This document shows positions 2,301 to 30,956 of a stretch of DNA of 32,182 bases, piece by piece. Under the pieces are notes generated by a model, which saw only the letters and a program-made list of their open reading frames with translations, was not told the origin of the DNA and did no database searches. Source of the stretch: an uncultured Bacilli bacterium (lineage in GTDB: Bacteria > Bacillota_I > Bacilli_A > RF39 > UBA660); the NCBI GenBank assembly GCA_944331885.1, contig CALVJF010000001.1, positions 1 to 32,182 on the forward strand, in the 5' to 3' direction. Position 1 is the first letter of the stretch. The number at the start of each line of letters is the position of its first letter. The translations under genes were made by a program, and so were the position numbers.

Positions 2301-2322
2301 AACTTTATGATAGAGGGTGGCT

Positions 2323-4155
2323 ATGTTGTTAGAATTTACTAAGGCAATTGATATTTTTAAAGATAATGGTTTTGACTTAAAGTCTAATTACCCTTTATTG
2401 TATAGAAGAGGCAATGACTTAGGTGTTGCATATACTTTTAATAGTATTAATTATGGAGTTTTAGAGCGATATAAATTATTTAATTCCGAGAAAGATTTGG
2501 ATATGTTTCTTAAGGAATTAAAGTGGTATAAAGAGTTTGGTAATAAGAAAAAAGTATATTTAAAAATAGATAACTTTGAAAAAGAAAATCCTAATTATTT
2601 TTTTATACATAATGGTAAAGAAATTACTTATGAAAATATGGTAAATATCGATAAATTTGATGAAGATATAAAAAAAGAATTAGAAGGTTCTGATATAAAA
2701 AGAATTACTTTCGAAATTGAAAGATTGTTTGAATATTATAAGAAAGTCAAAGAATATATATTAGATTATATCGATAGTGTAAATAAATCTTTAGATGAGT
2801 TATTTGAGTCTTATAAATTATTACAAAAACGGATAGATATTTATAATAATTTAAACATTGATAGAAATATAGAAGAAATTGAATTTAAAAAGATAAGTAT
2901 AAGTTTTGATGTAGCTAAAGAAAATAATCTAAAGGATACGCTTAATCAATATAAAGTTGGAGATAATACTTATGAAGAATTTGTAACTCTTTTGAAAAAA
3001 GTATGGTCTTTATGCATGGAACTGGAGTTAAAAGATGATTATATTAACGCTATGAGGGTTAAAAATGATGTTGTAAATGAACAAAATTTAGTTAATCTTA
3101 AGCTTGATTATATGGAAAAAATTATAAATAAAAAATCTTTATTTAAAGGAATTAAAAATATTGCTAAGAAGTTTAGAAGAATTGAGAGAAAATTTAAAAG
3201 TGTTAAATTAGCTGATGATTATGAAGATCTATACTTCAATAAAATTGTAGCTAAATATAGTATGTATGAGAATATGCATATTTTTAATACATATGCTTAT
3301 TTGGAAGATGCCTTTGAGTTTGATGGCGACTATAATGAATTAGCTAAATCTTATAAAGAAAGAAAAGAACTAGATTTAAGTAGTGGATTTAATGATGTAG
3401 ATAAGAATATTGCCGAGTTAAGAGATTTATATAATAAATTAGATGTAGTGGCTCAAGATAAGTTAATTATCTTAAATTCGGAATATTATGATTTGTTAAA
3501 TATGATAATAAATATTGATGATTATAAGATTAAAACTGGAGAAGATTTATTGTCAATTTTAAGTATTAATAATGAGTTTAATAAAATAATGGAAAGGTGT
3601 TATAGTTTAGTTAGTGAGATATTACCTTTTAATGAGGCAGAAAATATAAAAAGAATTTTTTCGTATATAAATTTTAATAGTCAAGAGGAATTTTTACTTT
3701 CGTTAGTTAGTATTTTAGATGATTTAGAGACAATTAGTGAAAAAATTATAATTAAGAATTCAATAATTGGTTATTTTAAAACTTATAATGCTGATAATTT
3801 TGTTGATAAAATGATAAAGGCTGATTTGGATGTATCTAATACTTTATGTGATATAAAAAGTAAGGATTTACGATATATTGTCGCTAATATAGGATCTAAT
3901 ATTAGAGGAGCTTTTTCTTATTTGACTTTAAATATTCCACGAAATGGGGAAACTGAAATTAGTGTTGTTAATTCTGATAAGATAGCATTTTATATTTTTA
4001 CGAATAGTACGATTATTGATAAATCTTCAGAAGTTTTAAAAGTTGTAGATTATCGTGGTGATGTAGTTCGAGAAGCTAACTATAGTTATGTTGAACGTTT
4101 AAATAAGGAATTGGAATTTAATTTTGTTAATTGGGATGTAAATCGAAAGCTATAG
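2323..4155 (+). CDS. Large hypothetical protein (about 610 aa), Lys/Glu/Asn-rich, no recognisable domain
   Basis: This is a long uninterrupted ORF with its own extended -10 promoter (2292-2300), an SD (AGAGGG), ATG 2323 and a terminator overlapping the stop codon. No catalytic or binding motif was recognised by eye. Confidence 0.6.
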   Translation: MLLEFTKAIDIFKDNGFDLKSNYPLLYRRGNDLGVAYTFNSINYGVLERYKLFNSEKDLDMFLKELKWYKEFGNKKKVYLKIDNFEKENPNYFFIHNGKEITYENMVNIDKFDEDIKKELEGSDIKRITFEIERLFEYYKKVKEYILDYIDSVNKSLDELFESYKLLQKRIDIYNNLNIDRNIEEIEFKKISISFDVAKENNLKDTLNQYKVGDNTYEEFVTLLKKVWSLCMELELKDDYINAMRVKNDVVNEQNLVNLKLDYMEKIINKKSLFKGIKNIAKKFRRIERKFKSVKLADDYEDLYFNKIVAKYSMYENMHIFNTYAYLEDAFEFDGDYNELAKSYKERKELDLSSGFNDVDKNIAELRDLYNKLDVVAQDKLIILNSEYYDLLNMIINIDDYKIKTGEDLLSILSINNEFNKIMERCYSLVSEILPFNEAENIKRIFSYINFNSQEEFLLSLVSILDDLETISEKIIIKNSIIGYFKTYNADNFVDKMIKADLDVSNTLCDIKSKDLRYIVANIGSNIRGAFSYLTLNIPRNGETEISVVNSDKIAFYIFTNSTIIDKSSEVLKVVDYRGDVVREANYSYVERLNKELEFNFVNWDVNRKL

Positions 4156-9681: not shown

Positions 9682-11604
<1,923 letters not shown>

Positions 11605-16882: not shown

Positions 16883-17551
16883 TTGGATTTATTATTATTA
16901 CTTGTAATTTTGATAATACCAGCTGTTGCTCAGTGGGGTGTTTATAAAAGTTACAATACATATAAACAAGTTAAAAATTCGAAAGGAATTAGTGGATTTG
17001 AAGTTGCTAGAAAAATTTTAGATGCTAACGGATTAGAAAAAGTTCATGTGGTAGAAGTTAATGGGAATTTAACTGATCATTATGATCCTAGTCGTAAAGT
17101 AGTTCGTTTGTCTTCTGATGTTTTTCATGGCGAAACTATAGCTGCTGTATCAATAGCTGCTCATGAAGTTGGTCATGCTCTTCAAGACAAAGATGGTTAT
17201 TTATATATGCGCTTTAGATCATTAATTTTTCCAGTTGTTAACGTTGCAACAGGAGTATCTTATTATATTATTTTATTAGGAATATTGTTGCAAGCATTTG
17301 ATATGATAATGTTGGGTATTGCTTTAACAGGCTGCGGTTTAATTTTTCAATTAGTTACATTGCCTGTTGAATTTAATGCTAGTAATAGAGCTAAGAAGTT
17401 ATTAACTAAAATGAATTTAGTTAGTGCTGGAGAAGCTGAAGGTGTAAGAAGTATGTTGGGAGCTGCTGCTATGACTTATGTGGCAGGAGTTATTGCAAGT
17501 GCTTTACAGATTTTAAGATTATTAATGGTCTATGGTGGAAATAGAGATTAA
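16883..17551 (+). CDS. Membrane zinc metallopeptidase, YugP family
   Basis: It has HEVGHALQ (HExxH), an N-terminal TM helix, LTDHYDP, and C-terminal TM helices typical of the putative neutral zinc metallopeptidase family. AGGAGG lies 7 nt before the TTG start, and the gene starts 11 nt after the cysS stop. Confidence 0.75.
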   Translation: MDLLLLLVILIIPAVAQWGVYKSYNTYKQVKNSKGISGFEVARKILDANGLEKVHVVEVNGNLTDHYDPSRKVVRLSSDVFHGETIAAVSIAAHEVGHALQDKDGYLYMRFRSLIFPVVNVATGVSYYIILLGILLQAFDMIMLGIALTGCGLIFQLVTLPVEFNASNRAKKLLTKMNLVSAGEAEGVRSMLGAAAMTYVAGVIASALQILRLLMVYGGNRD

Positions 17552-17572
17552 GCTACTTAAGTAGCTTTTTTT
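17551..17572 (+). terminator. Rho-independent terminator
   Basis: AGCTAC - TTAA - GTAGCT is followed by seven T residues. Confidence 0.75.
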
Positions 17573-17610: not shown

Positions 17611-17619
17611 TGATATAAT
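17611..17619 (+). promoter_or_regulatory. Extended -10 promoter (TGaTATAAT) for the acyltransferase/ligase operon
   Basis: TGATATAAT lies 18 nt upstream of ATG 17638 and downstream of the terminator at 17551-17572. Confidence 0.6.
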
Positions 17620-17637
17620 TATATAGGGAGGAATGTA

Positions 17638-18210
17638 ATGAAAAAGTTATGGCTGTATAAAATAGTTAGGCCTTTTATTACTTTTTTATTTAAATTGATA
17701 TATCATCCCAAAATAATAGGTAGTGAATTTATTCCTAAAAAAGATGGTATTGTATTAGCTGGTAATCATACAAATAATCTTGATTGTTTGTTGTTAATAT
17801 CGTCAACTAAAAGAAATATTCATTTTTTGGCAAAAGATTCACTATGTAAAGGAGTAAAAAAGTATATATTTTTAAATATGGGAATTATTCCTGTTGATCG
17901 TTCAAAACGAAATAAAGAGGTTATGGAAGTTGCGCGTAATGTTTTAAATAATAATGGAGTAATTGGAATTTTTCCAGAAGGTACTATTAATCGAACTGAA
18001 GATATAATTATGCCTTTTAAAATGGGGGCGGTTAAAATGGCTTATGATACTGCAAAGTGCATTGTGCCATTTGCAATAACCGGTAAATATAAGCCATTTA
18101 TTAATGATTTGAAAATTGTTTTTAGTAAGCCATATAAAATTAATAATGATTTAATAAAAGAAAATAAATTATTAAGTAATAAAGTTACTGAACTTTTAAG
18201 GAGGAAATAG
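17638..18210 (+). CDS. PlsC-family (lysophospholipid/glycerolipid) acyltransferase, paralog 1
   Basis: The HX4D motif (GNHTNNLD), FPEGT motif and PFKMGA block are present. A GGGAGG SD precedes the start. This is the first gene of the operon. Confidence 0.8.
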   Translation: MKKLWLYKIVRPFITFLFKLIYHPKIIGSEFIPKKDGIVLAGNHTNNLDCLLLISSTKRNIHFLAKDSLCKGVKKYIFLNMGIIPVDRSKRNKEVMEVARNVLNNNGVIGIFPEGTINRTEDIIMPFKMGAVKMAYDTAKCIVPFAITGKYKPFINDLKIVFSKPYKINNDLIKENKLLSNKVTELLRRK

Positions 18211-18212
18211 CA

Positions 18213-19961
18213 ATGGGTCTAATTAAAAGATTATGGACAAGAATTTTTAAAAAGTATAGTGATGAACCACCATGGTTAGAGTATTATTCTGAAGAGGAAA
18301 GGGCAATTAAATTTACTGATAAGTCTATTTATAATTATATGGAATCTTCAATAGATAACAAAGAGTATTATGCTCTTAATTATTTTGGTAATAGAATTAC
18401 GTATGGAGAAATGTTAAGAAGAATAGATTTAATTAGTAGAGGATTATTGTCATTAGGGGTTAAAAAGGGCGATGTTGTTAGTATTTGTATGCCAAATACG
18501 CCAGAGGCAGTTATTGCTTTTTATGCTTGTAATAAAATTGGAGCAATTGCTGATATGATTCATCCATTATCTGCAGCTAATGAAATTAAATCTTATATTG
18601 AAGATAATAAATCAAGAGTGTTATTTTTATATGATGCTAATTATGAAAAAGTGTGTGATTTTTTAGATGAAACAACAGTATATAAAACTATATTATTATC
18701 AGTTAAAGAGTCAATGCCTTTAATGTTAGGTATTGGTTATCAATTAACGCGAGGATTAAAAATTAAAAAGCCGAAAATGACAAATCAAGATTATATATCT
18801 TGGAGTGATTTATTAAATTTAGGAAGAGGATATCGTAATCAAAAGAAGATTAATGTTAAGTCTCAAGATTTGGCTATTATTTTGCATAGTGGTGGTACTA
18901 CTGGCAAGTCAAAAGGAATAATGATAAGTAATTACAATTTTAATGCTGAAGCTCAACAATGTGCTTTAAATGTGGCAAATGTTAGAGTACAAGATAAGAT
19001 TATGACAATATTGCCTATTTTTCATGGCTTTGGTTTAGGAGTTTGCGTTCATTGTCCTTTAACTTTGAATGTTGAAGTTATATTAATTCCGGAGTTTGAT
19101 GGAAAAAGGTTTCATCATATTATTCAAAAATATAAACCAAACGTTATAGCTGGAGTACCTACTTTATGGGAAGCAATGTTGAGTAATAAACGTTTCGAGG
19201 ATGTTGATTTGTCTTGCTTGAAATATGTTATTAGTGGTGGAGATTATTTAACAATAAGTATGGAAGAAAAAATGAATAAGTTTTTACGTACTCATGGAGC
19301 AAGTATTTCTATTTCTAAAGGCTATGGAATGACAGAAAGTGTTGCAGCTACTGCTTATACTTTTGATGGAACAAACGAGCCTGGTTCAATAGGAATCCCA
19401 ATGATAGGTAATAATTTTTGTATTTGTAAACCGGAAACAACTGAAGAGTTGCCTTATGGTGAAGAAGGAGAAATCTGTGTAAATGGTCCGACAGTAATGA
19501 TGGGTTATTGGGAAAATGTAGAAGAAACGCATAAAGTTTTGAAAAAACATAAGGATGGTAAAATTTGGTTGCATACTGGAGATGTTGGATATATTGCTTT
19601 AAATGGGGTTATTTATTTTACCCAAAGATTGAAAAGAATGATTGTTTCTAGTGGCTTTAATCTTTATCCTAGTGTTATTGAGGAAGTAATTGAGAAACAT
19701 CCTTTAGTTAAAAAGTGTTGTGTGATTGGGGTACCTCATAAGTATAAAATAAGTGTGGCAAAAGCTTTTGTAGTATTAGATGGAGAACCTTCTAAGAAAA
19801 TTGAAAGAGAGATTAGAGATATTTGTAAGGAAAATTTGGCTCAATATTCTCAGCCAAAATATATTGAGTTTAGAGATGAACTTCCAAAAACTTTGTATAA
19901 TAAAATTGATTATAAAACTTTAGAAAACGAAGAAAGTATGAAAAATAATGAAGCAAAGTAA
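18213..19961 (+). CDS. ANL-superfamily adenylating enzyme, FadD-like fatty acid-CoA (or carrier) ligase
   Basis: AMP-binding core motifs are present: HSGGTTGKSKG (A3), GYGMTES (A5), TGDVGY (A7), RLKRMIVSSGFNLYP (A8) and PKTLYNKIDY (A10 Lys). The start lies 2 nt after the upstream stop, with AAGGAGG inside the upstream gene. Confidence 0.85.
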   Translation: MGLIKRLWTRIFKKYSDEPPWLEYYSEEERAIKFTDKSIYNYMESSIDNKEYYALNYFGNRITYGEMLRRIDLISRGLLSLGVKKGDVVSICMPNTPEAVIAFYACNKIGAIADMIHPLSAANEIKSYIEDNKSRVLFLYDANYEKVCDFLDETTVYKTILLSVKESMPLMLGIGYQLTRGLKIKKPKMTNQDYISWSDLLNLGRGYRNQKKINVKSQDLAIILHSGGTTGKSKGIMISNYNFNAEAQQCALNVANVRVQDKIMTILPIFHGFGLGVCVHCPLTLNVEVILIPEFDGKRFHHIIQKYKPNVIAGVPTLWEAMLSNKRFEDVDLSCLKYVISGGDYLTISMEEKMNKFLRTHGASISISKGYGMTESVAATAYTFDGTNEPGSIGIPMIGNNFCICKPETTEELPYGEEGEICVNGPTVMMGYWENVEETHKVLKKHKDGKIWLHTGDVGYIALNGVIYFTQRLKRMIVSSGFNLYPSVIEEVIEKHPLVKKCCVIGVPHKYKISVAKAFVVLDGEPSKKIEREIRDICKENLAQYSQPKYIEFRDELPKTLYNKIDYKTLENEESMKNNEAK

Positions 19962-20535
19962 GAAATTAAATGAGTGGGGTTATAAGGTGTTTAAACCAAT
20001 ATTAAGTCCAATATTTAAATTATATTATAATCCTAGAATAGAAAATAAAGAATATTTGCAACAAGATGGACCAATTGTGGTAGTTGGAAACCATAAGCAT
20101 ATTATGGATCAATGTTTGGTAATTATTGCAACGAAAAGGATTATTCATTATATGGCTAAGAAAGAATATTTTGATGGAAAAATGGCTTGGTTTTTTAAAG
20201 CAACTGGTTGTATATCCGTCAATCGAAGTATTCATGATTCTAATGCCAAGAATAAAGCTTTGGAAGTGTTAGAAAGTGGGGGAGCTATTGGTCTTTTTCC
20301 TGAAGGAACTAGAAATAAGACTAAAGCTAAATTGTTGCCGTTTAAATATGGTGCTGTTTCAATGGCTAAGAAAACTAATGCGACAATCATTCCTTTTGGA
20401 ATAGTAGGAGATTATAAATTTCGTAGCAAAAATTTAAAAATAAAATTTGGAAAACCGTTTAAAGTTGGTGAAATGTCTTTAGAAGAGGCAAATGCTAAGT
20501 TGGAAAAGATAGTGTTAGAATTAATTGGAGGGTAG
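19948..20535 (+). CDS. PlsC-family acyltransferase, paralog 2
   Basis: The HX4D motif (GNHKHIMD), FPEGTRNKT and PFKYGA are present, and the protein is collinear with the 17638 gene. Its start overlaps the ligase stop by 14 nt. Confidence 0.8.
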   Translation: MKQSKKLNEWGYKVFKPILSPIFKLYYNPRIENKEYLQQDGPIVVVGNHKHIMDQCLVIIATKRIIHYMAKKEYFDGKMAWFFKATGCISVNRSIHDSNAKNKALEVLESGGAIGLFPEGTRNKTKAKLLPFKYGAVSMAKKTNATIIPFGIVGDYKFRSKNLKIKFGKPFKVGEMSLEEANAKLEKIVLELIGG

Positions 20536-20537
20536 TA

Positions 20538-21362
20538 ATGAGTAAAGATAGGAAAGATGGAAGATATATAAAGCCGAATGATGCAATCCATGCAATCATG
20601 CCTTATTTAATGGAAAAAAGAACTGAGTCTGAAGTATACAAAAGTCAACTAATTGATATTACCGAGTTAAAAAAATGGGTTGATACTAAAAATAAGGAAT
20701 TAGATTTTAAAATGACATATTTTCATGCATTAACTGCTTTATTGGTAAAAGTTCTTTACAATAGAAATTTATTAAATCGTTTTGTACAAGGGCATAGAAT
20801 TTATGAAAGAAATTATGTTTCTGTGACTTTTGCTGCTAAAGATAAAATGAGTGATAATGCTGAAGAAAAAATGATAGTATTGAAAATTGATAAAAAAGAT
20901 AATGGAGTTAAGTTGGCAAAAAAAATGGCAGTAGATATATTTAAAGTTCGCAAAGAAGGGACAAACGATTTAGATCAAACTTTAAAAGTAATTACTAGAA
21001 TGCCACGTTGGCTGTTAAGAATATTTGCTAAATTTGTAAAATGGTTGGATTATCATGGCTGGTTACCATCTAGTTTTACAGATACTGATCCTAACTATAG
21101 TACATTGTTGTTATCTAATTTAGGAAGTATAAAAAGTGATTCTTGTTATCATCATTTAAATAATTATGGTACTAATTCAATTATTATAACTATTGGATTG
21201 ATTAGAGAGGAAAAGGGAAAAACTTTAGTAGATTTAAGTGCAACTTTAGATGAAAGAATAGCGGATGGGTTTTATTTTGTAAAGTCAATGAATTTAGCGC
21301 AATATATAGCGAGTAATCCAGAAATTTTAGAAGAAGAGCTTGGTAAAATAATTAAAGAATAA
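20538..21362 (+). CDS. Stand-alone 2-oxoacid dehydrogenase E2 / CAT-fold acyltransferase-like protein with a DER variant of the DHR motif
   Basis: The protein is collinear with E2 catalytic-domain blocks (IDITELKKW, MTYFHALTALLVKVL, TLLLSNLGS, LSATLDERIADGFYFVKSM...NPEIL). There is no lipoyl or E3-binding domain. GGAGGG precedes the ATG, which lies 2 nt after the upstream stop. Confidence 0.6.
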   Translation: MSKDRKDGRYIKPNDAIHAIMPYLMEKRTESEVYKSQLIDITELKKWVDTKNKELDFKMTYFHALTALLVKVLYNRNLLNRFVQGHRIYERNYVSVTFAAKDKMSDNAEEKMIVLKIDKKDNGVKLAKKMAVDIFKVRKEGTNDLDQTLKVITRMPRWLLRIFAKFVKWLDYHGWLPSSFTDTDPNYSTLLLSNLGSIKSDSCYHHLNNYGTNSIIITIGLIREEKGKTLVDLSATLDERIADGFYFVKSMNLAQYIASNPEILEEELGKIIKE

Positions 21363-21382
21363 GTACTTAAGTACTTTTTTTT
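21361..21382 (+). terminator. Rho-independent terminator closing the four-gene acyl operon
   Basis: AAGTAC - TTAA - GTACTT is followed by a T-run. Confidence 0.7.
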
Positions 21383-22518: not shown

Positions 22519-23106
22519 TTGGTGTATGTCGTGATTAATTTTGAAGACTTTTTAGAAAATGGTGAAAAAATAATATATAAGAGTAAGTGTAATTATAAGA
22601 AGATTTCTAGTAATTTTTTATTTAATGGGATTTTGTTTTTGGCTATTATTTGTTTACATGTGGGAATGATAATTTTTGCTTTAAATAAATATCAAAATTT
22701 GGGAGAAATTATTATTGTAATCTTACTAATTTCTATTCTTTGTGTTACTTTTGAGTTAATATTTGGCTATGCATTAATTTATGGAATATTTTTAGCCAAA
22801 AAAGATTATAAAGATTCTTATTATTGTATGACTGATCGAAGAGCTATGGTTTATGAAAAAAATAAGTTAATATTTGTGTATTTGCAAATTATGAGTGATA
22901 TATTTGTAACAAAAGAAAAAGATGGTTATGGAAATGTTGTATTTAATGTAGATAATTTTGATTATGAAAGTGGTATTGTGACTAAGTTATCTAATTCTAA
23001 TAATGAAGAATTGGGATTAACATTTGTAGCAATTGAAAAGCCAACTCAGTTATGTGAATTGGCAATTAATACTCGTGATAAGCTTTTAAAAGAATTAAAT
23101 AAATAG
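22519..23106 (+). CDS. Hypothetical membrane protein (two TM helices plus a C-terminal soluble domain, possibly bacterial PH-like)
   Basis: Two hydrophobic helices (FLFNGILFLAIICLHVGMIIFAL, IIIVILLISILCVTFELIFGYALIYGIF) are followed by MTDRRAMVY...GNVVF. The start is ambiguous (TTG 22519, GTG 22522 or GTG 22531). Confidence 0.4.
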   Translation: MVYVVINFEDFLENGEKIIYKSKCNYKKISSNFLFNGILFLAIICLHVGMIIFALNKYQNLGEIIIVILLISILCVTFELIFGYALIYGIFLAKKDYKDSYYCMTDRRAMVYEKNKLIFVYLQIMSDIFVTKEKDGYGNVVFNVDNFDYESGIVTKLSNSNNEELGLTFVAIEKPTQLCELAINTRDKLLKELNK

Positions 23107-25149: not shown

Positions 25150-25177
25150 ATGTTTCCTTTAAAAAGGGGGATTGTAT

Positions 25178-26581
25178 ATGTTTGATTTTTATATAGATCA
25201 ATTAAAGAAAAATAAAATAGCTTTTTTAAAAGATATTAGTAAGAATCAACTTGGTAATTTAATTTCTTATGTTCGTAAGAGAGAAGACTATCAAGAAATA
25301 GTTGCAACTATTTATAAAAATTTAATTAGTAGAGGCTATTCTAAAATATTATTTGCTTTAGTTTATGATAATCCTGTTTATCAGAGTTTTGTAATGAACT
25401 ATATAAAAAAGCATCCAGAAATAGTTAATCAAGGAGATTATGTTGGTGGATTAATGTATTTAGATTATGGTTATGAAATTTTAAGATTATTAGCAAATAG
25501 TTTGAATGATAGTTGTTTAAGGATTTTGTTGGGATATGTTTTAACTTATAAGGAAGAAGATATTTTATATTTTTTGAAACATTCTAATATGCATGTTAGA
25601 GCAATTATGTTACAGGAAATGATTAGAAAGTTTCCAGAAAAATATTATGATTATGTGACCGATTTAAAAGAAATTATAATAAAGCCTTATGATGAAAATG
25701 ATCAGTATTATATTCAGCCAATGCTTGTTTCTGAGCCTGATCTGTCTTTAATAGCGGTACTTTTTAAAAGTAGTGGTGTTTTTGACGAAGAATACAATAA
25801 ATTGAAGGATTATATTATTGCAACTTATAAAAGTAATGATTTAGCAAAATTATTAGTTGGAAATGGGATGAATCAAGAATTTATTGATGATGCTGATAGA
25901 TTATTTTTAACTAGCAAAACTTTTAAAATTGGTTTAATAAATAAATTTGGTCAGCATATTAATTCTGAATTAGTTAAAGAATTTAATAGGTTATATAGTG
26001 TCTATATGACTGGAGCGAGCATTGTGACTGATTATGCATTTGCTTATGGATTAGGAGAAAAATTGGGGTCTATTACCGAAAAATATTTAGATTTAAGTCA
26101 TAGTAAAGACTTTAGGCTATTGCCTGGAGGTGGCTGTGCTAAAACGTTTAAAATAGGTGATTATGTTTTGAAAATGAGTTTAAGGAAACATTCATATGAA
26201 CCAATAATATGTCCTGATTTATTTTTAACAATTGAAAATTTGGAAGAAATAATTTTACGCGATGGATTTGGTCATGTTAAGTTTGCATTAGAAGTGCAAA
26301 AATATTTAGAGCGTGGTGCAGAGGGAATAAGTATAGATTTATTTAATTTGTTTCATCAAGAATTAGCAAAGTTAGGGTATTATTCAATGGATACAATAAA
26401 ATTAGAGTCTTTTAAAAGAAATTGTCGATATTTAGATGATTATCATGATGCGGATATTCGTAATCCAGAGGAATTGCCTGACTGGTTTAAAAAAGATCCA
26501 ATAGTTTTAGTTGATCGTGATTTGGTTTTTAAATTGTCAAATAAGATGCCTAAAACTTTGATATCTTCTTGGGAATTGTAA
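25178..26581 (+). CDS. Hypothetical protein with a helical N-terminal region and a possible minimal protein-kinase-like C-terminal domain
   Basis: It has its own extended -10 promoter (25141-25149) and a GGGGG SD 8 nt before ATG 25178. The C-terminal 160 aa carries GGGCAKTFKIGDYVLKM (Gly-rich loop plus Lys), YHDADIRN / SMDTIK and VLVDRD. The kinase-like reading is an inference. Confidence 0.5.
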   Translation: MFDFYIDQLKKNKIAFLKDISKNQLGNLISYVRKREDYQEIVATIYKNLISRGYSKILFALVYDNPVYQSFVMNYIKKHPEIVNQGDYVGGLMYLDYGYEILRLLANSLNDSCLRILLGYVLTYKEEDILYFLKHSNMHVRAIMLQEMIRKFPEKYYDYVTDLKEIIIKPYDENDQYYIQPMLVSEPDLSLIAVLFKSSGVFDEEYNKLKDYIIATYKSNDLAKLLVGNGMNQEFIDDADRLFLTSKTFKIGLINKFGQHINSELVKEFNRLYSVYMTGASIVTDYAFAYGLGEKLGSITEKYLDLSHSKDFRLLPGGGCAKTFKIGDYVLKMSLRKHSYEPIICPDLFLTIENLEEIILRDGFGHVKFALEVQKYLERGAEGISIDLFNLFHQELAKLGYYSMDTIKLESFKRNCRYLDDYHDADIRNPEELPDWFKKDPIVLVDRDLVFKLSNKMPKTLISSWEL

Positions 26582-28302: not shown

Positions 28303-29055
28303 ATGAAAGCATTAATTACGGGTGCTAGTAGTGGTATTGGTAAAGATATAGCTCGTTATTTAGATAGTTTGGGGTATGATTTAGTTATTGTTGCTCGTAG
28401 AGAAGAAAGGCTTAAGGAATTAAGTAAAGAGTTGAAAAATAATGTCAGAATTATAGATTTAGATTTAGCTAAAATTGATAATGTTTATAAGTTATATGAA
28501 TTAACTAAAGATGAAAGTATAGATTTATTGGTTAATAATGCCGGCTTTGGTTTATTTGGAATGACTTATAAAACTGATTTAAATCGGGAATTAGAAATGA
28601 TAGATTTAAATATTAAGGCATTGCATATTTTAACGAAATTATTTTTAAAAGATTTTGTAGCTAAGGATAGAGGAAGAATTTTAAATGTTGCGAGTAGTGC
28701 GGGATTTATGGCAGGTCCAAGATTAAATACTTATTATGCAACTAAGAATTATGTTTTAAGATTTAGTACTGCTATTTATGAAGAATTGAAGAGAATGAAG
28801 AGTAATGTGCATATTAGTGTTTTGTGTCCGGGACCAGTAGAAACTGAGTTTAATAAAGTGGCAAAAGGTGATTTTTTAATGAAAGGTCAAAGAAGTGATG
28901 TAGTGGCCAAACGAGGAATTGATGGGTGTTTGAAAAACAAGTTAGTTATTGTTCCTTCTTTAGGAATGAAAATAGCTTTATTTTTTAATAAATTGGTACC
29001 AATGAAATTATCTTTGTATGTAACATATTTTATTCAAGAGAGGAAGAGTAAGTAA
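28303..29055 (+). CDS. Short-chain dehydrogenase/reductase (classical SDR) with a hydrophobic C-terminal tail
   Basis: The motifs TGASSGIG, NNAG, the Ser region (NVASSAG) and YYATK (YxxxK) are present, with the C-terminal tail KIALFFNKLVPMKLSLYVTYFI. Confidence 0.85.
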   Translation: MKALITGASSGIGKDIARYLDSLGYDLVIVARREERLKELSKELKNNVRIIDLDLAKIDNVYKLYELTKDESIDLLVNNAGFGLFGMTYKTDLNRELEMIDLNIKALHILTKLFLKDFVAKDRGRILNVASSAGFMAGPRLNTYYATKNYVLRFSTAIYEELKRMKSNVHISVLCPGPVETEFNKVAKGDFLMKGQRSDVVAKRGIDGCLKNKLVIVPSLGMKIALFFNKLVPMKLSLYVTYFIQERKSK

Positions 29056-29675
29056 TGTTTGATAAGTTTTTAAAAAATATGCCCGTTAGTAACTATTATG
29101 TAGGATATCGAGTAAGAAAAGACACCATATTAAAAACAGATACAGATAGTCAAGGGATTAGAAGTGATGCTTTTATACATACATATCTATCTAGTTTGTT
29201 ATTTTTATATACTAAAGATGGAGAAAAATATCATGATGTTAAATTGAAAAAATCTGTTAACGAAGTAAATGTCGATGAACTTTGTTCTTTACATCTAGAT
29301 TATGGAAATAAATATTTGAAAAGGTCTGATTATGATGACTATTCGAAAAATGATTTGTATGGTGTATATGGTATTACTAATCTAGAAGAAGTTATAAAAG
29401 CAATTAATGATGGGGATTCGCTTGTTGATAAACCAGTATTTAAATATGATGAAAATTTAGGAATAACAATGATGGAAGCAGATTTATTTTTAAAATCAAT
29501 TAATAAGTATCTTGGAGGAAATGCTGATTCGATAGAGTGTCCAATGATAGCTAAGGATGAATTAGATGATTTTAAATGTGATTTTATGACGAAACAAGAA
29601 TTTTTAAATGTAGTATCTGGTAAAAATCCATTGCAAGTAAAAGGAATTTTAAAACAACTTAAAGACGTGAATTGA
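29055..29675 (+). CDS. Hypothetical protein (206 aa) translationally coupled to the SDR
   Basis: The ATG overlaps the SDR stop codon (TAATG at 29053-29057). No motif was recognised. A bidirectional terminator follows. Confidence 0.55.
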   Translation: MFDKFLKNMPVSNYYVGYRVRKDTILKTDTDSQGIRSDAFIHTYLSSLLFLYTKDGEKYHDVKLKKSVNEVNVDELCSLHLDYGNKYLKRSDYDDYSKNDLYGVYGITNLEEVIKAINDGDSLVDKPVFKYDENLGITMMEADLFLKSINKYLGGNADSIECPMIAKDELDDFKCDFMTKQEFLNVVSGKNPLQVKGILKQLKDVN

Positions 29676-29707
29676 AAAACTAACTTTACGATTTAAAGTT
29701 AGTTTTT
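29675..29707. terminator. Bidirectional terminator between convergent genes
   Basis: AAAAACTAACTTTA - CGATT - TAAAGTTAGTTTTT forms a 14-bp perfect stem with A-run and T-run flanks. Confidence 0.8.
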
Positions 29708-30032
29708 ATTTTTTTCTAATTGCTTCACTATACCAAATAACATCATCTTTTTTAGCGTCATTTAACATAATAAAGTTGTTTAAGATACGATAAGTTTTAG
29801 GATTCATTTCTTTAATATTTAAATCTTTAATAGGAGTATCATTTTCTATACGACCAAGCAAATAATCTATTGATGTATTTAGATAGTCAGCTATTTTAAT
29901 AAGTGTTTCAATGTTAGGGTATGATTTTCCTTGTTCATAAGCACTAATTGATTCTTGTTTAATATTTAAATCTGTTGCTAGTTTTGATTGAGTAATATTT
30001 CTTTTTTGACGAATTCTTTTGAGATTTTTCAT
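29706..30032 (-). CDS. XRE-family helix-turn-helix transcriptional regulator
   Basis: The segment IRQKRNITQSKLATDLNIKQESISAYEQGKSYPNIETLIKIADYLNTSIDYLLG is a typical Cro/C1-type HTH. An AGGTGA SD and a consensus promoter lie upstream. Confidence 0.85.
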   Translation of the reverse strand: MKNLKRIRQKRNITQSKLATDLNIKQESISAYEQGKSYPNIETLIKIADYLNTSIDYLLGRIENDTPIKDLNIKEMNPKTYRILNNFIMLNDAKKDDVIWYSEAIRKK

Positions 30033-30063
30033 AAATTCACCTACTTTTATAATTTATAATTAT

Positions 30064-30092
30064 ATTATAAAATAATTAATATTTATTTGCAA
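30064..30092 (-). promoter_or_regulatory. Consensus-like promoter of the XRE regulator gene
   Basis: On the minus strand, TTGCAA (30092-30087) is followed by a 17-nt spacer and TATAAT (30069-30064). Three TTATAA(T) copies at 30047, 30054 and 30065 overlap and follow it and could act as operators. Confidence 0.55.
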
Positions 30093-30104
30093 GATGTAAA
30101 ATTG

Positions 30105-30133
30105 TTGTTTATCGAACAAAAGTATGATATAAT
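30105..30133 (+). promoter_or_regulatory. Promoter of the radical SAM gene (probably also reading into uvrA)
   Basis: TTGTTT (30105-30110) is followed by a 17-nt spacer containing TG, then TATAAT (30128-30133). The ATG lies 17 nt downstream, so the leader is very short. Confidence 0.55.
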
Positions 30134-30149
30134 TATTTTGGTGTTAATT

Positions 30150-30956
30150 ATGGAATTTAAAAAGGTTTATATTGAAATCACTAATAATTGTAATTTAAAT
30201 TGTAAATTTTGCATTGGCAATAAAAGAGAAAAGATGTTTATGGAATTAAAAGATTTTAAAATCATATTAAATAAGTTACAAGGATTTACAAGATATTTAT
30301 ATTTTCATATAATGGGCGAGCCTTTATTGCATCCACAAATAGAAGAGTTTATTAGGGAAGCTAGTGAAAATTATTTTGTAAATATTACAACTAATGGTTA
30401 CTTAATTAAAAAGATTAAAGATTGTAAAAACATTAGACAAGTAAATATTTCTTTACATTCTTTTAATGAAAATGCTAATAAGTCTTTAGATGATTATTTG
30501 AAAGATATTTTGGAAGTAAGTAATAAATTGGCTGAGGAAGGAACATTTATTTCTTTAAGAATGTGGAGTAGAAATGTAAATAAAGATATTATTATCGAAA
30601 AAATTAATAATTATTTTGGAACTAGAATAACTGGTGAGATGTCTTGTAAAATTAAAGATAATATTTTTTACGAAACGATGCAGGAATTTGTATGGCCAAG
30701 TTTAACTAATGATTTTTATAGTGAAAAAGGTACTTGTTATGGAACAAGGCATCATATAGGAATATTAGTTAATGGTGATATAGTTCCTTGTTGTTTAGAT
30801 AGCAATGGTGATGTTAAATTAGGTAATATTTACAAAGAAGAATTAAATGATATAATATGTAGCGAAAAGTTCTTAAAAATGAAAAATGGCTTTATAAGTA
30901 ATCAAAAAGTTGAAGAACTTTGTAAACATTGTGATTTTAAAAAGAATATGTTTTAA
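30150..30956 (+). CDS. Radical SAM enzyme with a C-terminal SPASM/twitch-like Cys-rich extension
   Basis: The CX3CX2C cluster motif (NNCNLNCKFC) lies 12 aa from ATG 30150. The C-terminus has CYGTRHHIGILVNGDIVPCC (CX13GX4C), then a single C, then CKHC. The track TTG start at 30087 lies upstream of the promoter at 30105-30133. Confidence 0.8.
   Translation: MEFKKVYIEITNNCNLNCKFCIGNKREKMFMELKDFKIILNKLQGFTRYLYFHIMGEPLLHPQIEEFIREASENYFVNITTNGYLIKKIKDCKNIRQVNISLHSFNENANKSLDDYLKDILEVSNKLAEEGTFISLRMWSRNVNKDIIIEKINNYFGTRITGEMSCKIKDNIFYETMQEFVWPSLTNDFYSEKGTCYGTRHHIGILVNGDIVPCCLDSNGDVKLGNIYKEELNDIICSEKFLKMKNGFISNQKVEELCKHCDFKKNMF

Follow-up and report, generated by a model that had tools for sequence, protein, structure and literature searches.

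What do two PlsC-family acyltransferases, a fatty-acid ligase and a protein with an acyltransferase fold accomplish when their genes are packed into one tight array, and do they serve one pathway? The question is raised by a locus in a 32,182-nt stretch of DNA from an uncultured Bacilli bacterium (contig CALVJF010000001.1; the whole stretch is called the window below). Four open reading frames (ORFs) on the forward strand span positions 17638 to 21362: gene A (17638 to 18210), a PlsC-family acyltransferase of 190 residues; gene B (18213 to 19961), a FadD-like adenylate-forming fatty-acid ligase of 582 residues; gene C (19948 to 20535), a PlsC-family paralogue of A with 195 residues; and gene D (20538 to 21362), a stand-alone protein of 274 residues with the fold of E2 and chloramphenicol acetyltransferase (CAT). 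A 2-nt gap separates A from B, B and C overlap by 14 nt, and a second 2-nt gap precedes D. An earlier reading of the sequence alone had described exactly these coordinates, and its four family assignments were correct, as established by Pfam and NCBIfam profile searches for A, B, and C and by AlphaFold2 modeling with Foldseek for D. Its statement that the arrangement fits no named pathway also stands. The four genes look like one operon; the tight gene packing is a stronger argument for a single transcript than the regulatory signals.

Two conserved modules with a common ligase family

Conservation was examined in two samples. For the D-centered sample, species-representative genomes were scanned with the D family, and the best 80 loci of at least 581 species were taken; the A-centered sample came from a metagenome scan with A and comprised 86 loci. 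The complete order A-B-C-D was observed only in near-identical contigs of one species (L001-L004). The sequence-only reading had regarded the four genes as a self-contained unit and had itself named a lack of co-conservation outside this genome as grounds for abandoning that view, which is what the comparison revealed.

Parts of the array, in turn, were conserved well beyond that species. A-B-C was present in all five homologue contexts that were looked up, with identical overlaps. Of the 86 A-centered loci, 45 held A-B-C in full, at least 13 had A-B cut by the contig end, and 18 to 19 had A-C without B. A B-type ligase adjoined D in approximately 50 of the 80 D-centered loci, in the orders B-D, D-B, or B-x-D. 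A sensitive profile search of the same 80 loci found a PlsC gene near D in L014 only, plus a weak match in L080, and the idea that PlsC genes had merely been overlooked beside D was dropped after this search. The D homologues of about 70% identity have other surroundings: one follows just a ligase (L171), one follows a flavodoxin (L172), and one stands by itself (L173). The D gene of L172 lies 500 kb from an A-B-C array (L085) on the same 1.03-Mb contig (ERZ28751742:contig_12937). In that A-B-C array, the C-type PlsC is split into ORFs of 151 and 91 residues (L085:10323-10917), which reflects a frameshift or else an error of long-read assembly.

Because the four-gene order is confined to one species while each module is conserved elsewhere, the operon brings together two conserved modules, A-B-C and B-D, with a common ligase family. 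The window is the one place that joins both in a single operon.

The ligase, the PlsC pair, and the proposed route

From these comparisons, we propose that through the operon, a junction of two modules sharing a ligase, free (scavenged) fatty acids enter membrane glycerolipid synthesis, a reading that we hold to be about equally likely to be right or wrong. In the proposed sequence of steps, B would adenylate a long-chain fatty acid and hand the acyl group to a thiol carrier, with coenzyme A (CoA) the likelier one. A and C, to judge from their family, motifs, and neighbors, would then acylate two distinct positions, or two distinct acceptors, of the glycerol-phosphate backbone. D might serve as an accessory protein that handles acyl thioesters.

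The ligase has the domains and motifs expected of a FadD-type enzyme. Pfam searches returned AMP-binding (1e-79) and AMP-binding_C (3e-19), and the core adenylation motifs SGGTTGKSKG, GYGMTE, HTGDVG, and PKTLYNK are all present. The best NCBIfam models were long-chain-fatty-acid–CoA ligases (PRK05605, 356 bits with a cut-off of 766; PRK06187, 323 bits with a cut-off of 476), and the relatives of known structure in the Protein Data Bank (PDB) were generic class-I adenylating enzymes. A neighbor-joining tree of the ligases, built with no outgroup, separated a Clostridial clade of D-adjacent ligases from a Bacilli clade, in which the D-adjacent ligases of three Bacilli loci join the A-B-C ligases at the base. 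One or two additional ligase paralogues lie directly upstream of A-B-C at L102:2410-5999, L125:2175-3908, and L148:4271-5989 and form a tree branch of their own.

The remark of the sequence-only reading that no carrier-protein gene lies nearby was borne out. A motif scan of the window and 170 related loci found no small ORF resembling an acyl carrier protein (ACP), although the scan used the DSL-type pattern only and divergent carriers would escape it; the window also holds no PlsX, PlsY, or Fak gene. With no ACP gene near any of the relatives, CoA is a likelier acceptor than ACP, and the product of B is probably acyl-CoA, with acyl-ACP as the alternative.

Genes A and C both belong to the PlsC family, with PF01553 matches of 97.4 bits (7e-28) for A and 93.0 bits (2e-26) for C against a cut-off of 23. 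Both carry the HX4D catalytic dyad of block I (NHTNNLD in A and NHKHIMD in C), and A matched the PlsC entry 5KYM of the PDB at 7e-9. A BLASTP comparison of the two proteins gave a collinear alignment at 41% identity, in agreement with their earlier description as collinear paralogues. The pair differs in block III, whose canonical form FPEGTR binds the acceptor phosphate: C has the canonical block (FPEGTRNKT) and A a non-canonical one (FPEGTINR). This difference is consistent among orthologues: C-type proteins have PEGTR in 62 of 62 cases and PEGTRNKT in 58 of 62, whereas approximately 80 of 84 A-type proteins have PEGT(I/F)N(R/K), in which the arginine is moved by two residues relative to FPEGTR. 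A and C are anciently diverged PlsC paralogues whose order is always A then C. The fixed order, together with the consistent block III difference, suggests that they act on two distinct acceptors. The most likely pair of reactions would lead from glycerol-3-phosphate to lysophosphatidate and on to phosphatidate, one paralogue being PlsD-like; alternatively, the two acceptors might be lysophosphatidate and a lysophospholipid.

The neighbors of A and C in other genomes point in the same direction. A PgsA-like CDP-alcohol phosphatidyltransferase gene stands directly upstream of A in four loci (L088, L092, L103, and L104), and in L014 a PgsA-like CDP-alcohol phosphatidyltransferase is fused to a C-type PlsC in one protein of 370 residues (L014:2933-4045, minus strand). 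An A-type PlsC gene and the ligase gene border this fusion on either side; an Acyl_transf_3 gene and a D gene in divergent orientation are close by. In 19 further loci (L152-L170), most of which lack the ligase, the A-C pair precedes a protein of approximately 970 to 1190 residues with two acyl-CoA-dehydratase-activase (BcrAD/BadFG) domains and DUF2229, which we take to be the corresponding domains of PlsA. In the same 19 loci, a homologous protein of 435 residues comes after the large one (for example, L167:7226-10147 and L167:10430-11737). By domain content, the two resemble the architecture of the plasmalogen synthase PlsA/PlsR (PMC9702350, PMC12838417). As PgsA-like and PlsA-like proteins represent core glycerophospholipid functions, these neighbors argue for ordinary membrane glycerophospholipid synthesis. 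Aminolipid synthesis of the OlsA/GlsA type was considered and rejected: the OlsA and OlsF models gave 25 to 28 bits against cut-offs of 300 to 620, and no N-acyltransferase (OlsB or GlsB) is encoded in the operon or its flanks.

The alternative that survives best is repair or scavenging in the manner of Aas, in which B would be an acyl-ACP or acyl-CoA synthetase and A and C would re-acylate lysophospholipids (1-acyl as well as 2-acyl) derived from uptake in the gut or from membrane turnover. A ligase coupled to a PlsC-type acyltransferase is the design of Aas and of AasC/LpaT (PMC6167442), and the atypical block III of A would be expected for an acceptor other than lysophosphatidate. A and C fit the PlsC domain of Aas-type fusions about as well as they fit TIGR00530, the 1-acylglycerol-3-phosphate O-acyltransferase subfamily: against PRK08633, the MFS-PlsC-Aas fusion family, A scored 91.8 bits compared with 90.9 on TIGR00530, and C scored 67 bits. 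However, the cut-off of PRK08633 is 1221 bits, and the Aas-type equivalog PRK08043 gave only 24.8 bits for A and 17.5 for C against a cut-off of 886. With its scores under the cut-offs and its acyltransferase and adenylating genes separate, the locus falls outside the Aas-type families (PRK08043, PRK08633, and PRK06814). Moreover, B is nearer to FadD-type CoA ligases, no gene for an LplT-like lysophospholipid transporter or for ACP was found near any of the 171 sequences examined, and the PgsA-like and PlsA-like neighbors suit de novo synthesis at least equally well. We regard Aas-like repair as unlikely.

Gene D, an E2/CAT fold without the catalytic histidine

The sequence-only reading had described D as an E2/CAT-fold acyltransferase-like protein. 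The fold was confirmed, at the level of a predicted structure: the AlphaFold2 model (predicted local distance difference test, pLDDT, of 82) retrieved E2 catalytic domains from the PDB by Foldseek at E values of ~1e-12 to 4e-12 and CATs with TM-scores of 0.73 to 0.80 (target-normalized). The match to PF00198 reached 22.0 bits and fell short of the cut-off of 23, and no second domain was found, so that D lacks the lipoyl and subunit-binding domains.

The active site, by contrast, departs from that of the canonical enzymes. In HMMER profile alignments, Glu239 of D (DERIADG) aligned with the catalytic histidine of the E2 structure 3MAE (DHRxxDG) and of CAT III (HHxxxDG). A glutamate at this position is invariant in 34 aligned D homologues; in the wider set of 302 D-family sequences, 258 have DER and the others that could be read show DDR, DNR, or DQR; DHR was not found. 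With a glutamate in the position of the catalytic histidine, D is not a canonical E2/CAT acyltransferase. Two further motifs, SNLGS and YHHL, are invariant in the family alignment. SNLGS, by its position relative to Glu239, appears equivalent to the oxyanion serine of E2, an assignment that we assume here; the YHHL loop (His205 and His206) is poorly resolved in the model, with pLDDT below 50. A helical insertion at approximately residues 144 to 172 is amphipathic in appearance and could conceivably bind the membrane.

The D family is large, with members in at least 581 Bacillota species (Bacilli and Clostridia) and approximately 1,300 clusters at 50% identity, and where it is named in any source it is a "hypothetical protein". 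Bacilli-like D genes also occurred in three metagenome-assembled genomes (MAGs) labeled "archaeon", "Methanobrevibacter sp.", and "Muribaculaceae" (L012, L016, and L021), with a ligase adjoining in the first two; mis-binning is the likely reason for these labels, and horizontal transfer is a possible one.

All recurrent partners and fusions of D are lipid-related. Besides the ligase, 19 loci have a Lactamase_B_2 hydrolase gene, either separating B from D or in the vicinity of D, and a flavodoxin gene is a partner of D in 10. The Clostridial arrangement runs from the ligase through this metallo-β-lactamase (MBL)-fold hydrolase (Lactamase_B_2/_3; best NCBIfam model PRK00685) to D, as in L020:3477-6858 and 18 other loci, and the hydrolase gene is immediately upstream of D in at least 10 of the 19. 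A GT4 glycosyltransferase gene is found near D in 13 loci; its best model is alpha-monoglucosyl-diacylglycerol synthase, at 113 bits and far under the cut-off of 400. The end of the GT4 gene coincides with the start codon of D in L008 (4829-5992), and a GT4 gene is also near D in L013 (4818-5984) and 11 others. On this sequence match, the GT4 neighbor hints at a glycolipid link for D. Fusions of D-family proteins to PAP2, GtrA-like, and WS/DGAT domains were also observed, the last in one protein.

Within the proposed route, D might acylate a glycolipid, diacylglycerol, or a lysolipid, or might swap acyl groups between thiol carriers, the latter by analogy with E2 chemistry; the active site, with glutamate for histidine, would be non-canonical in either case. 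We tentatively extend this to the whole family, as a possibility in which we have rather low confidence: D proteins would be a large, uncharacterized family of CAT/E2-fold acyl-transfer enzymes in which a glutamate, perhaps with the YHHL histidines, replaces the histidine, and which together with a dedicated FadD-type ligase would form a route for environmental fatty acids into the membrane lipids of gut Bacillota that depends neither on FakAB nor on an ACP gene. In the present operon, this route would be wired to a phosphatidate-making PlsC pair. Transacylation from acyl-CoA to a carrier or to a lipid, and glycolipid acylation, are possible reactions for D in such a scheme.

A second alternative holds that D is a non-catalytic pseudo-enzyme, acting as a scaffold or as an acyl-CoA-binding regulator of the ligase, and that the chemistry is performed by A, B, and C only. 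The E3-binding protein of eukaryotic pyruvate dehydrogenase, which lacks the histidine, offers a comparison. The family-wide occurrence of Glu, Asp, Asn, or Gln at the catalytic position, with DHR in none of the 302 sequences, would suit this explanation, and so would the fact that the commonest partner of D is the ligase itself. However, SNLGS, YHHL, and DERIADGFYF with its invariant glutamate are very strongly conserved, a pattern more typical of a working active site; a glutamate can serve as a general base; and the fusions to catalytic lipid enzymes suggest an enzymatic role. We regard a pseudo-enzyme as quite unlikely.

The weakest alternative, in which three acyltransferases act in sequence in a dedicated pathway that builds or remodels an unusual multi-acylated lipid (for example, an acylated glycolipid or a tri-acylated species), takes up the idea of the sequence-only reading and is very unlikely: one operon does hold three acyl-transfer-type proteins and one ligase, D directly follows the GT4 gene in other Bacilli, and some D proteins are fused to WS/DGAT or PAP2, but D is absent from 86 of 86 A-centered loci and PlsC from approximately 78 of 80 D-centered loci, the operon contains no head-group or amino-lipid enzyme (OlsB or GlsB) and its OlsA-type scores are 25 to 28 bits against 300, and the genes that adjoin A and C are PgsA-like and plasmalogen-synthase-like elsewhere and housekeeping genes here.

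Returning to the feeding of free fatty acids into glycerolipid synthesis, several observations weigh against it. B lies under every curated NCBIfam cut-off, so that no equivalog or subfamily model claims it, and neither A (90.9 bits) nor C (89.2 bits) reached the TIGR00530 cut-off of 102.95 bits. D has neither DHRxxDG nor HHxxxDG and could be non-catalytic. In addition, D adjoined A-B-C in none of the 86 A-centered loci, and its place in the operon could reflect the shared ligase partner only, rather than a pathway shared with A and C.

Operon boundaries, surroundings, and known systems

The sequence-only reading had bracketed the operon with one promoter and one terminator. Both elements are located where it had placed them, but as evidence for a bracket they are weak. 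The extended -10-like element TGATATAAT (17611 to 17619, forward strand), a putative promoter, is accompanied by no good -35 element. Promoter-like sites numbered 40 in the real sequence compared with 37 in shuffles, which is no enrichment, and TGATATAAT is indistinguishable from this background. An upstream Shine-Dalgarno sequence, GGGAGG (17626 to 17631), is separated from the ATG of gene A by 6 nt. At the 3' boundary, the putative terminator (21361 to 21382) is a weak hairpin (AAGTACTTAAGTACTT) formed by a 16-nt palindrome that begins within the stop codon of D and is followed by a T-run; it folds with only -6.5 kcal/mol (z = -2.0) and falls under the G+C criterion of the terminator scanner. 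A stronger hairpin with a T-run (17550 to 17567, -8.7 kcal/mol), detected by terminator scan, folding, and palindrome search, closes the Zn-peptidase gene upstream and delimits the operon at its 5' end. The promoter and terminator signals of the operon are therefore plausible but weak.

The palindrome TACTTAAGTA occurs in exactly two copies in the 32-kb window (17554 to 17563 and 21364 to 21373), compared with a chance expectation of 0.11. Each copy is the core of a hairpin with a T-run starting at a stop codon, and the two flank the operon on either side. The pair could represent the common terminator type of this genome or the footprint of cassette assembly.

The window has a G+C content of approximately 27% with uniform skew throughout. 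Matching sequences are gut-metagenome contigs and the MAG GCA_947853625.1. The flanks of the operon encode housekeeping functions (BipA, an ABC exporter pair, LysRS, ClpC, CysRS, alanine racemase, UvrB, and a CBS-type pyrophosphatase). With housekeeping flanks and uniform composition over the window, an origin of the operon from a mobile element or a defense system was set aside. The class II lysyl-tRNA synthetase (9685 to 11604, 639 residues) carries a C-terminal tRNA_bind domain of the EMAP/Trbp111 type. Four ORFs had no Pfam match: 2317 to 4155 (612 residues), 25172 to 26581 (469 residues), 22519 to 23106 (195 residues), and 29055 to 29675 (206 residues). Those of 469 and 195 residues coincide with genes called in each of the four near-identical contigs, where the starts are placed slightly later, and the latter appears to have hydrophobic segments. 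At 29706 to 30956, a radical-SAM/SPASM protein and an HTH_3 (Xre-type) regulator are encoded by a divergent gene pair, which may be part of a longer locus for peptide maturation.

If the proposed route is correct, the PlsC-ligase-PlsC cassette would give Gram-positive bacteria a second means of using fatty acids of the host or the diet, one that needs no kinase, with a bearing on resistance to inhibitors of fatty-acid synthesis by the type II system (FASII) and on how diet shapes these taxa. The related low-G+C Bacilli of gut and rumen are uncultured, and the cassette bears on how their membranes are built. The D family is widespread in gut Clostridia and Bacilli and consistently tied to a fatty-acid ligase and lipid enzymes; its reaction, once found, would allow thousands of genes to be annotated and could bring to light a catalytic solution new to this old fold. 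Literature searches on the A-B-C module or the D family returned nothing specific, and papers dealing with RF39 and RFN20, orders of uncultured Bacilli (PMC7301438, PMC10868615), are silent on fatty-acid or phospholipid synthesis. Neither the PlsC-ligase-PlsC cassette nor the His-less E2/CAT family was present in the curated profile libraries or in the literature searched.

Among known systems, the E2 cores and CAT (1B5S, 3MAE, and 3CLA) share the fold of D, with the SNLG and DxRxxDG motifs collinear. D differs from them in lacking lipoyl and subunit-binding domains, in its invariant glutamate in place of histidine, in its additional amphipathic helical insertion, and in its invariant YHHL loop; unlike E2, its partners are a fatty-acid ligase and lipid enzymes rather than E1 or E3. 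In the actinobacterial FadD28/PapA5 and WS/DGAT systems, a FadD-type ligase and a CAT-fold acyltransferase with the HHxxxDG motif make lipid esters. As in these, a fatty-acid activator is paired here with a protein of the CAT/condensation fold, and one D-family protein is fused to WS/DGAT. However, those enzymes retain the histidine of HHxxxDG and often use donors bound to carrier proteins, and D is nearer to E2 than to condensation-like domains.

The standard exogenous fatty-acid route in Gram-positive bacteria is FakAB/PlsX/PlsY/PlsC (PMC10146087). The proposed task would be the same, namely the delivery of exogenous fatty acids into phosphatidate, but activation would be carried out by an AMP-forming ligase instead of a fatty-acid kinase, and no Fak, PlsX, or PlsY gene is found in the window.

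The sequence-only reading had considered E. coli Aas to be the only well-known precedent for the pairing of ligase and acyltransferase. Two other systems deserve comparison. In Chlamydia, the Aas-type ligase and acyltransferase are split into separate genes, AasC and LpaT (PMC6167442), as they are here. In Aas as in AasC/LpaT, an HX4D acyltransferase of the PlsC family is coupled genetically to an enzyme of the FadD superfamily through which free fatty acids are activated for the acylation of phospholipids. The present operon differs in having two PlsC paralogues that flank the ligase and an attached fourth gene with the E2/CAT fold; its ligase is nearer to FadD-type CoA ligases, with the Aas equivalogs far under their cut-offs, and it has no ACP or LplT gene nearby. 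A PlsC homologue of Clostridium butyricum, PlsD, replaces PlsB of E. coli (Heath, Goldfine and Rock 1997, as cited in PMC1950310). It is a small Bacillota protein of the PlsC family that can supply glycerol-3-phosphate acyltransferase function, as the de novo scheme with two paralogues needs; its comparison with A and C is one of described function, and it is not known to have an adjacent ligase. Because the combination of a ligase with PlsC (Aas and AasC/LpaT) and a glycerol-3-phosphate acyltransferase of the PlsC family (PlsD) are both already known, the operon varies a known design.

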